DNA of 63,283 nucleotides, filler included, from Bigelowiella natans CCMP2755 (taxonomy: Eukaryota; Protista; Cercozoa), in the NCBI GenBank assembly GCA_000320545.1. It is 4 parts of 4 records of this genome, joined end to end, with 100 filler letters (N's around TTAATTAATTAA, not from the genome) between each part and the next. Parts side by side here need not be neighbours in the genome. Positions count along the whole stretch, not along the records: positions 1 to 22,768 come from ADNK01003024.1; 3 more parts are not named here. The stretch is one strand, 5' to 3'. A program made the position numbers and the translations under genes. The notes beneath the pieces are model-generated. The model was not told the origin of the DNA. It ran no database searches and saw nothing but the letters and a program-made list of their open reading frames with translations. Shown piece by piece: positions 20,549-22,768 of this stretch (position 1 is its first letter; every line of letters starts with the position of its first letter).

Positions 20549-22768
20549 TCATCGCTTTCGGAACTTCACCAACCACCAGGTAATAGATTCCTCTCTAACC
20601 TTATCTCCTTTGTCGCTTACCCAGAACTCACCTTCGTCCTTAGGTTCGTGTCCATACCAGCCCTCTGCATCAAGGTCCCCCAGGACCTTATACCAGTGCT
20701 CAAAGGGTAAGTCGGGAACAGCTAGGTAGAGTAGCTGATATTTTCCGTCCTTTATTTTCATAGCTACCCTCTCCATATTTCGTAATCCAGGGTAGCCTAG
20801 ATAGACAATCTTCATGCGCCAATCGTCGTTCACCCTGACCTTATTGTTTCCATATTCCACATCGAACTTAGGTCGGGGTCCTAAACAAGGCATTGCTCGC
20901 TCCCACACAGTAGGGTTTACTTTAACATCCTCTAGGAGCTTCTCACCGATATCATAATTCTTTAGGTGACTGATGTGGCGCAAGGTGACCCTGTTCCCAT
21001 CATAGATGTAGTACTGCTTCCTCCCCTTCCTCTCGGTAACCTTTGCAACGCCACCCCAGAAGGGGTCTTGTTTATTTCTCGATCTCAGATTTACCTTGGC
21101 CCTAACATACTGTCCTTCCTTTAGAACTCGGCCATCGTACGGGACCTTCTCGTCTTCGCTCTCGGTATCGTCGTCGTTGTCGTCGCCTTCTTCCCTCTCC
21201 TTATCCTTGATACCTCCCCCAGACGTGAAGGTGTCGTTTACTAACCCTTGTATCTTGTCTGGTGTGGTGCTATTTATCCTGCTTAGGTTGGCCAAGGTGC
21301 GGTGGAGTCGCTCTACCTTGGAGTTGGACTGGGCATAGTATACAGGTGAGGCATCAATATTAGGGTGTGGTAGCTGTAGAAGAGAGGTCTCATTATCCAC
21401 ATGTAACTTCTTTGGTATCTTGTTTATGCTAACTTCATCAGGGATAGCCTGGAGCTCAGACTCCCAGGTACGGTAGCAGTTAGTAAGCCTCTGCTTATAT
21501 AAGCCTTTGTTCTTCTTAGCAACGTTGACCTTGATAATCTTTTTAACCCAGCACTTTCCAGTGGCCACATCAACGAAGGTAAGGTAGTGATAGCCATCGT
21601 ACTTATAAACATCAATTTGCACGATATCTAAGAAGTTCCTTGCTTTGATTTTCTTAGATGCACGGCTCTTGCTGGACTCCTTGGTGGCGACGCCTGCCGC
21701 CTTCAAGCTGGAGCACCTGCAGCCACGCAGGTATGTCCTTATCTCTTTTAGCTTGTAGGGCCAGTAGTAATGGTAGAGTAGAGCAGTGATATGGTTTTCT
21801 CCTACGTGTGCAGGTCCATGGGCGGTAAAGAGAAGGGCTCCCCTGGTCCGCCGTGGCACGTAGGTACGCCTAACATTATTAGTGTATACATATATCCTAT
21901 CACTAAGTACCTCATGCTTGTGTTTGTATTTATCCAGGTGTTCTTGAAGGTGCCGGAGCTCCTCTGGCTCAGGCAGGAAGTCGCCGTCCTCGAAGGTAAT
22001 CGCGTTAACCATAGGGGTGACCTGGGTAGGGACTTTCTTTTCGAACAGCCTGCTGAAATAGTCAGCAAGCTGCTTGTCTCCTGGTGCGTAGACCACTGTC
22101 CTCTTGTCCCTAAACTCTTCCGTGTCCGCCCTCATAGCTGCATACTCATCGTTAGGCGCTTCGAGCTTGCGGTCGATGCCTAGGAGGGGCTTGTGGTCAG
22201 TCATTAAGGTGAAGCTGGGCACCGACAGCAGGTAGTATCTTAGTTTCCTCTGCGCCTCAGTCATGGCTTTATACTCTCCTTTTGTAGGGCTGTACTTGGC
22301 CTCAGCTGCTGTGCAGGCCCTGCCCCACACCCGTATGATCTGCTGGTCTTGGGTAAGTACAGCAGCCATACCTAGCTTAGACCAGTCTGTCCATAGGGTA
22401 GCTGGTCTAGTAGTGTCTAGCTTAGCATTCAATAGGGTGTTGCTGCATAACTTTATTAGGTTATCGAAGTGGGCATCAAGGCCAGCCTTGGCCCACACCT
22501 TAGCGAAGCTGAGGCCTACAGAGTTCTCCTTCCGGTAAGCAGTAGTAAAAGCAGCTGCAGTCCTAGCGTAGGTAGGGGAGAACCTACGTAGTATCCAAGC
22601 TGCAGTCTGCAAGAATGACTTTAACTCCTTTGCATTCTTAGGTTTAGGGGCTTGCTGTAGTGCTGCTACTTTCTCGGGGTTTGGGGTGATGCGGCCTTGC
22701 TCCAGGTAATATCCACACCACTTGATTCTTGTAGCTAGGAATGTACACTTCTGCAGTCTAATAGTAAA
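20549..22768 (-). CDS. pol: Pol polyprotein, partial: RT C-terminus, RNase H, integrase and a C-terminal methyltransferase-like extension
   Basis: Frame is open from the gap: KCTFLATRIKWCGY...PKNAKELKSFL (RT); TDWSKLGMAAVLTQ, YSPTKGEY, TDHKPL, ADYFSR (RNase H); HGPAH...CRC (HHCC), IVQIDVY, HVDNE, SNSKVERLHRTL (DDE); PFWGG...HISHLK (GPY/F-like). Confidence 0.92.
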   Translation of the reverse strand, partial: FTIRLQKCTFLATRIKWCGYYLEQGRITPNPEKVAALQQAPKPKNAKELKSFLQTAAWILRRFSPTYARTAAAFTTAYRKENSVGLSFAKVWAKAGLDAHFDNLIKLCSNTLLNAKLDTTRPATLWTDWSKLGMAAVLTQDQQIIRVWGRACTAAEAKYSPTKGEYKAMTEAQRKLRYYLLSVPSFTLMTDHKPLLGIDRKLEAPNDEYAAMRADTEEFRDKRTVVYAPGDKQLADYFSRLFEKKVPTQVTPMVNAITFEDGDFLPEPEELRHLQEHLDKYKHKHEVLSDRIYVYTNNVRRTYVPRRTRGALLFTAHGPAHVGENHITALLYHYYWPYKLKEIRTYLRGCRCSSLKAAGVATKESSKSRASKKIKARNFLDIVQIDVYKYDGYHYLTFVDVATGKCWVKKIIKVNVAKKNKGLYKQRLTNCYRTWESELQAIPDEVSINKIPKKLHVDNETSLLQLPHPNIDASPVYYAQSNSKVERLHRTLANLSRINSTTPDKIQGLVNDTFTSGGGIKDKEREEGDDNDDDTESEDEKVPYDGRVLKEGQYVRAKVNLRSRNKQDPFWGGVAKVTERKGRKQYYIYDGNRVTLRHISHLKNYDIGEKLLEDVKVNPTVWERAMPCLGPRPKFDVEYGNNKVRVNDDWRMKIVYLGYPGLRNMERVAMKIKDGKYQLLYLAVPDLPFEHWYKVLGDLDAEGWYGHEPKDEGEFWVSDKGDKVREESITWWLVKFRKR

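Follow-up and report, generated by a model that had tools for sequence, protein, structure and literature searches.

A predicted Dam-type methyltransferase fold without its catalytic motif at the end of a Ty3/gypsy pol in Bigelowiella natans

The element, its copies and host mutation

The window, by which we mean the whole stretch of 63,283 nucleotides (filler included) from Bigelowiella natans CCMP2755 that was analysed, holds the 3' part of a Ty3/gypsy gag-pol reading frame, in which RNase H is followed by an integrase and the integrase by a tail (Table 1). The frame runs upstream into an assembly gap (22769–22868), where the element is cut short, with its 5' LTR, gag, protease and the core of RT all missing. 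Its assignment to gypsy rests on the order of domains and on the RT–RNase H matches: RNase H precedes integrase in the window, and the full order protease–RT–RNase H–integrase is found in the relatives P0058 and P0075. An LTR of the TG...CA type, a polypurine tract and a short target duplication are the further hallmarks of Ty3/gypsy elements present here, whereas those of DIRS elements are not, the integrase being of the DDE type and the LTRs direct, in place of a tyrosine recombinase and inverted or split repeats.

Table 1. Features of the element and of the antisense RNA, with positions in the window
Feature	Position	Strand	Remarks
Ty3/gypsy gag-pol ORF, 3' part	20549–22768	-	739 open codons; stop at 20549; truncated upstream by assembly gap
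RT thumb/connection	22418–22768	-	Reaches the gap
RNase H	22049–22417	-	PF17917, E 9e-15
Integrase zinc finger	21713–21859	-	CxC instead of CxxC; PF17921, E 0.001
Integrase core	21239–21637	-	D386, D458, E486; 27 residues from second D to E
Acidic linker	21140–21238	-	Length-variable; mean identity 23%
GPY/F and SH3-like integrase C-terminal module	20960–21139	-	SH3-like eL21 match, E 0.004; near-fixed spacing to tail
Predicted Dam/PCIF1-type N6-methyltransferase-fold domain without catalytic motif (tail of pol)	20552–20959	-	136 aa
Asp33, likely motif I aspartate	20861–20863	-	Conserved (D in 32/42); SAM-binding loop after it apparently shortened
GYPG	20786–20797	-	In register of the [DNSH]PP[YFW] strand-4 motif
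Polypurine tract	20498–20505	-	Immediately precedes 3' LTR; read from sequence
3' LTR	20172–20497	-	326 bp, TG...CA
Solo LTR of the same family	14764–15089	-	326/326 identical to 3' LTR, same orientation; flanked by 4-bp target duplication
Antisense GT-AG introns 1–5	20580–20643, 20707–20871, 20910–20965, 21036–21124, 21165–21286	+	Removed from RNA across pol
Antisense GT-AG introns 6–10	21579–21657, 21860–21937, 22232–22287, 22353–22459, 22535–22641	+	Removed from RNA across pol

An earlier, sequence-only reading of this DNA had taken two identical LTRs to flank the pol frame, which proved mistaken. Both copies lie downstream of pol, and the one 5.4 kb beyond the 3' LTR is a solo LTR and not the element's 5' LTR, since it lies further downstream between 4-bp target duplications. 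The recent activity of the family, proposed in the same reading, is nevertheless borne out by its multiple, near-identical copies. Among the longer database proteins the tail matches 21, every one of which bears the label of a Bigelowiella natans gene model, 20 of them at 99–100% identity. Two DNA sequencing runs, both of them possible sources of the window, each contain a single contig of 5420 bases with 1 difference from the window over 2597 positions, and in this contig the LTR is followed by a stretch resembling a primer site. By these sequence comparisons, the family is young and present in multiple copies in B. natans.

The host is known to mutate TpA to TpG or CpA in foreign DNA (bioRxiv 10.64898/2026.01.13.699255); the available part of that preprint mentions neither gypsy nor LTR. 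In one copy of the element family 16 of the 18 differences are changes of the TpA type (A-to-G), and two related families of the host are devoid of Tyr over 1243 and 670 residues; of their Tyr columns, 11 of 12 and 11 of 11, respectively, hold His, Cys or Arg. Judging from these patterns of substitution, the published hypermutation extends to LTR retrotransposons, in older copies of the tail-bearing clade. A pair of metagenomic relatives displays the same bias in 4 of its 5 differences, so that hosts other than B. natans likely hypermutate the clade at TpA as well. The copy in the window is still rich in TpA (1.18 against 0.68–0.82 in the host flanks). Replacement of Tyr by His, Cys or Arg is further apparent in the host gene models P0024, P0029 and P0035 and in the metagenomic proteins P0054, P0056 and P0057.

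Fold and conservation of the tail

That pol continues beyond the GPY/F region was correctly perceived in the sequence-only reading, and the residues quoted there are present in the tail. Sequence searches alone reveal little of its nature: we obtained no match in Pfam, PHROGs or NCBIfam, nothing relevant from phmmer and profile searches against PDB sequences, values of E ~1 at best or no match at all from tblastn of phages, and no usable match from a search of the Atlas with the tail of the window. The tail is nonetheless conserved among relatives, with 47 matches in a phmmer search of 1.84 billion representative sequences, 38 of them distant at 27–41% identity. A single one of these 38 touches the Pfam Dam family (PF05869), at E 0.032 and 14.4 bits against a curated cut-off of 28.1 that is reached by neither the tail nor any of the distant relatives, and the clade escapes screens based on Pfam.

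Structure prediction points to a Dam- or DIRS-type N6-methyltransferase fold, the identity first proposed for the tail. AlphaFold modelled the tail with pLDDT 95.5 and pTM 0.89 from 33 sequences, compared with pLDDT 38.8 from the single sequence. Foldseek aligned this model to ten viral models at E<=0.001 (E down to 1e-5, TM 0.60–0.66, 10–15% sequence identity), five of which are named as N6-adenine methyltransferases, one as a methyltransferase and four not at all; the same search of the PDB returned no match at E<=0.001. In VIA the best solved match is PCIF1 (Z 6.7, rmsd 4.0, 117 aligned residues), with a Z below 8 and thus beneath the level counted as clear, and nearly all of the 50 rows in that list are SAM methyltransferases. 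A separate Atlas model of one relative matched Dam clusters as well as clusters of RT-bearing eukaryotes at TM 0.56–0.63. The fold closest to the tail is, on these predicted models, the class I SAM-methyltransferase fold of phage Dams.

The comparison of sequence profiles is marginal in score and consistent in register. Aligned by hhalign with seven phage Dams (a scan for further Dam loci found none), the tail profile attains E 0.042, and 3 of 100 column shuffles score as high; the alignment places DW..W.GYPG over DW..W.NPPY and VP over VP. The T1-type phage Dams of PF05869 provide the best structural matches; in the alignment DW, strand 4, the helix, VP and W all fall in register with the tail, from which these Dams differ in having NPPY for GYPG, an apparently longer SAM loop and the invariant Arg of GRL, which the tail lacks. 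Conservation in 38 distant proteins together with the predicted Dam-type fold argues that the tail is no chance extension, and we consider it almost certainly homologous to Dam-type methyltransferases on the strength of predicted structure and motif register. A convergent likeness, or one produced by the prediction itself, with the tail an unrelated alpha/beta domain, would agree with the marginal profile scores, the modest Z and the low identity to viral proteins, and is nevertheless extremely unlikely given that two separate models and the motif register all point to Dam, while SAM methyltransferases fill nearly the whole VIA list.

The replacement of the catalytic motif by GYPG, already recognized in the window, turns out to be a property of the whole clade. 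We compiled 50 tails under 90% identity, of which 45 cover the motif (median identity 32%). The [DNSH]PP[YFW] pattern occurs in none of the 45, which answers in the negative the proposed check for family members retaining NPP; the motif reads GYPG in 20 tails, other variants of G/A/W-x-P-G/T in 18, SFP[FL] in five and other forms in two. In N6-methyltransferases the first residue of the motif forms a hydrogen bond with the target amine, and the last provides stacking on the base, according to the part of the review by Iyer et al. available to us (PMC4738411); both positions are Gly in the GYPG of the window. The SAM-binding segment also appears shortened, as had been suspected: from the motif I Asp to DW it falls short of the phage Dams by about 11 residues, in a region where the alignment is weak. 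Since the N6-priming polar residue and the base-stacking aromatic are both replaced by Gly, the tail has very probably lost its catalytic activity.

A divergent subgroup (P0060, P0064, P0077, P0078 and P0079) carries SFPF or SFPL at the motif. The SFPF form, found in three of the 45 relatives, keeps a polar first and an aromatic last residue, and these proteins might be active; by its motif, the SFPF/SFPL subgroup is closer to the catalytic form and supplies the best candidates for residual activity.

The tail is nonetheless under constraint. Three residues are invariant wherever they are covered (P82 in 50/50 tails, W89 in 49/49, W128 in 48/48), Pro57 is found in 43 of 45, an aromatic residue is kept at position 56, and the conserved residues are mostly Trp, Pro and Gly. 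The comparison of substitution rates, likewise proposed at the outset, covers one pair, with dN 0.78 and a dS of 2.7 that is close to saturation. A fold kept under selection while its motif is lost in every member examined implies that a non-catalytic role is sufficient. With a mean identity of 32%, the tail is the least conserved of the folded domains (41–54% in the others, 23% in the linker). No Lys or Arg column in it is conserved at 70%, unlike the phage Dams with their invariant Arg, which weakens the idea that the tail binds DNA; net charge fails to separate the tails (median -6) from the phage Dams (about -3).

A clade with an unusual integrase, and its described counterparts

When RT–RNase H alone is used as the query, 13 proteins are retrieved at 45–100% identity, followed by ordinary gypsy proteins at no more than 37% (among the best 120 of 524 matches). 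The tail is present in 11 of 15 proteins of this clade, the remaining four stopping before its position, and in none of 107 other gypsy proteins. In a quick tree, a single branch with SH-aLRT 100 splits 16 clade rows from 36 of the 107 others, and the SFP[FL] subgroup groups with the tail-bearing clade. The tail marks, on this phylogeny, one deep gypsy clade. Members with a named host come from B. natans and the rest are metagenome records; P0047, a pol protein of the clade filed under a Nitrospirales genome bin, is likely a eukaryotic contamination of that bin.

The integrase is the second oddity of these elements and merits a structure of its own. The second D and the E are 26–27 residues apart in all 18 pattern-matched clade proteins (21 examined, three unmatched), compared with 35 residues in all 71 pattern-matched other gypsy proteins (107 examined, 36 unmatched). 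Where a D,D(35)E core and an HHCC finger would be expected, the clade has D, D and E at the shorter spacing and a CxC finger, and the Pfam integrase core profile does not match its core. Our search of the mostly open-access literature for DD27E/DD26E integrases returned nothing relevant. Further downstream, 53–56 residues separate the SH3-like module from the motif in 18 of 21 clade proteins, while the linker between the core and the SH3–tail module varies from about 50 to over 130 residues. Taken across the clade, the short spacing, the CxC finger and a short end of the core recur together (window 21239–21859; P0075, P0058, P0082–P0090).

The sequence-only reading held a Dam-type domain to be foreign to gypsy elements, and on this point it is superseded. 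A preprint of May 2026 reports Dam domains on Ty3/gypsy elements, the DAM-LTRs (Fernandez-Moreno et al., bioRxiv 10.64898/2026.05.21.726589), in five lineages from chlorophytes, an ochrophyte, ichthyosporeans, Pyropia and Euglena. As far as the accessible text of that preprint goes, these domains conserve Asn-Pro-Pro, show no 6mA activity in E. coli, and are accompanied by raised 6mA on the element copies; Bigelowiella, Rhizaria and Cercozoa do not appear in its main text. The DAM-LTRs resemble the present clade in joining a Ty3/gypsy pol to a Dam-like domain in a unicellular host, and differ in that they keep NPP, whereas the B. natans clade has lost the motif throughout and has an integrase spacing of 26–27. 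The hmmsearch cut-off of 1e-5 used in their screen would likely miss the B. natans tail. Rhizaria are likewise absent from the main text of PMC12695648, and Bigelowiella together with gypsy received only passing mentions in the literature covered, which was mostly open-access and did not extend to Repbase Reports. The Dam domain on gypsy elements is therefore already known; the literature searched yielded no account of the GYPG form that this clade carries throughout, joined to a short-spaced integrase and active in a rhizarian.

DIRS elements provide the other counterpart. Their methyltransferase-like domain, proposed to be inactive (Iyer et al., PMC4738411), shares with the tail, as does the PCIF1 clade, the unpermuted group-2 N6-methyltransferase fold, here again within a retrotransposon polyprotein; unlike the tail, which follows a DDE integrase, it follows RNase H in an element with a tyrosine recombinase (PMC3783388), so far as the portions of both sources at hand describe it. 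Whether Dam-like domains of retrotransposons methylate at all is contested, the review regarding them as likely inactive (PMC4738411) and the DAM-LTR preprint finding the motif kept without activity in E. coli (bioRxiv 10.64898/2026.05.21.726589), each in the part available.

Possible roles of the tail and other features of the window

What role could a methyltransferase fold without its catalytic motif play at the end of an integrase? Chromoviruses carry a targeting domain in this very slot. The fixed spacing of the tail to the SH3-like module and the variable linker that precedes both suggest that it is attached to the integrase. We hypothesize, at a probability of about one half, that the tail is a non-enzymatic binding module on the integrase, through which some mark or factor of the host directs integration; the reading or targeting role suggested in the sequence-only account is accordingly plausible. 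On this view the predicted Dam-type fold, whose catalytic motif is gone from the whole of a deep gypsy clade, would have stayed on the mature integrase, where its former base or cofactor pocket may have been reused for binding; the integration complex would thereby be tethered to the host mark or factor, much as by a chromodomain. The candidate ligands would be a methylated adenine, a cap or methyl-lysine, or a protein. The chromodomain of chromoviruses likewise serves as a binding accessory at the end of the integrase, but has a different fold and is relevant by analogy only. The same holds for METTL14 and the mitochondrial pseudo-methyltransferase Mtf1/TFB2M, in which a methyltransferase fold is reused as a binding scaffold in a different context. 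The tail may also be cleaved off by the protease. As the family is young, multi-copy and resident in a cultured, sequenced marine alga with a TpA mutator, its role is directly testable.

The co-occurrence of the tail with the short D–E spacing, together with the predominance of Trp, Pro and Gly among its conserved residues, could alternatively reflect a purely structural part of a remodelled integrase, which replaces surfaces lost as the core shrank and binds nothing of the host. We regard this as unlikely, because a linker of such variable length before the SH3–tail module is more suggestive of a tethered domain than of a fixed part of the core.

Less likely again is a role in particle assembly or reverse transcription through binding of the element's own RNA, cap or cDNA. 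Such a role has been proposed for the DIRS1 domains, suggested to lack activity and perhaps to bind the template transcripts or act as mimics of PCIF1 (PMC4738411, in the part available), and the cap-binding PCIF1 is the nearest solved fold to the tail; the tail is, however, situated at the integrase end and not beside RT or Gag, and it has no conserved basic residue.

A more speculative scenario, and an improbable one, is that across the clade an adenine methyltransferase became a pseudo-enzyme that binds adenine, carried on a reduced integrase and reading host 6mA for targeting or shielding new copies from a TpA-specific, adenine-deaminating defence. If the shield were real, it would be the first counter-measure of a retrotransposon against A-to-G hypermutation.

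In another reading the tail would still be a working methyltransferase with a non-canonical site, in which Tyr56 stacks the base and the backbone of Pro57 primes it. Retention of Pro57, Asp33 and the aromatic at 56, the SFPF form of three relatives and the raised 6mA on DAM-LTRs elsewhere (in the accessible text of their preprint) are consistent with this; yet in most members Gly stands at both catalytic positions, the SAM loop appears shortened, and by that same text even eukaryotic DAMs bearing NPP yielded no 6mA in E. coli, making such activity quite improbable.

Very improbable, finally, is that the tail serves as a plain counter-defence, shielding the adenines of new copies from the TpA-specific hypermutation of the host. 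The mutator itself (bioRxiv 10.64898/2026.01.13.699255, available part), its traces in the element family, in the two Tyr-less host families and in the metagenomic relatives, and the TpA-richness of the young copy in the window all invite the thought, but they link the tail to the mutator by co-occurrence only. Copies bearing the domain are mutated all the same, an integrase-bound domain acts once while the mutator works on integrated DNA, and the richness in TpA is explicable by youth alone.

The pol region is also transcribed in antisense. Splicing of at least 10 introns (20580–22641), three of which fall within the tail, is seen in RNA contigs of three studies, one of them only guessed to be RNA, whereas the splice joints are absent from two DNA runs, among the 15 of 37 matches listed. 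Runs X19 and X20 likewise show none of the joints listed. We rejected an antisense protein, the longest spliced frame being 141 codons from stop to stop, and also rejected the transcriptome protein P0076 as evidence of sense expression, as it is a sense reading of the antisense-spliced RNA. The antisense splice signals exceed codon shuffles for a branch-like word only (15/1000; one of 8 tests). The antisense RNA could arise by read-through and be spliced noisily, or it could serve in silencing.

Elsewhere in the window, host genes include a flavin-dependent oxidoreductase (38530–39621, plus strand) and a piece of a Na/Ca exchanger (50315–50875, minus strand). Provirophages are known from the B. 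natans genome, and an AT-rich virophage insertion lies between assembly gaps at 44693–49757, with a Sputnik-type minor capsid protein (PF21507, E 2e-17), a major capsid protein (PF21915, E 5e-28), a lipase-like ORF and a possible protease ORF; its TpA value of 0.87 is not depleted.
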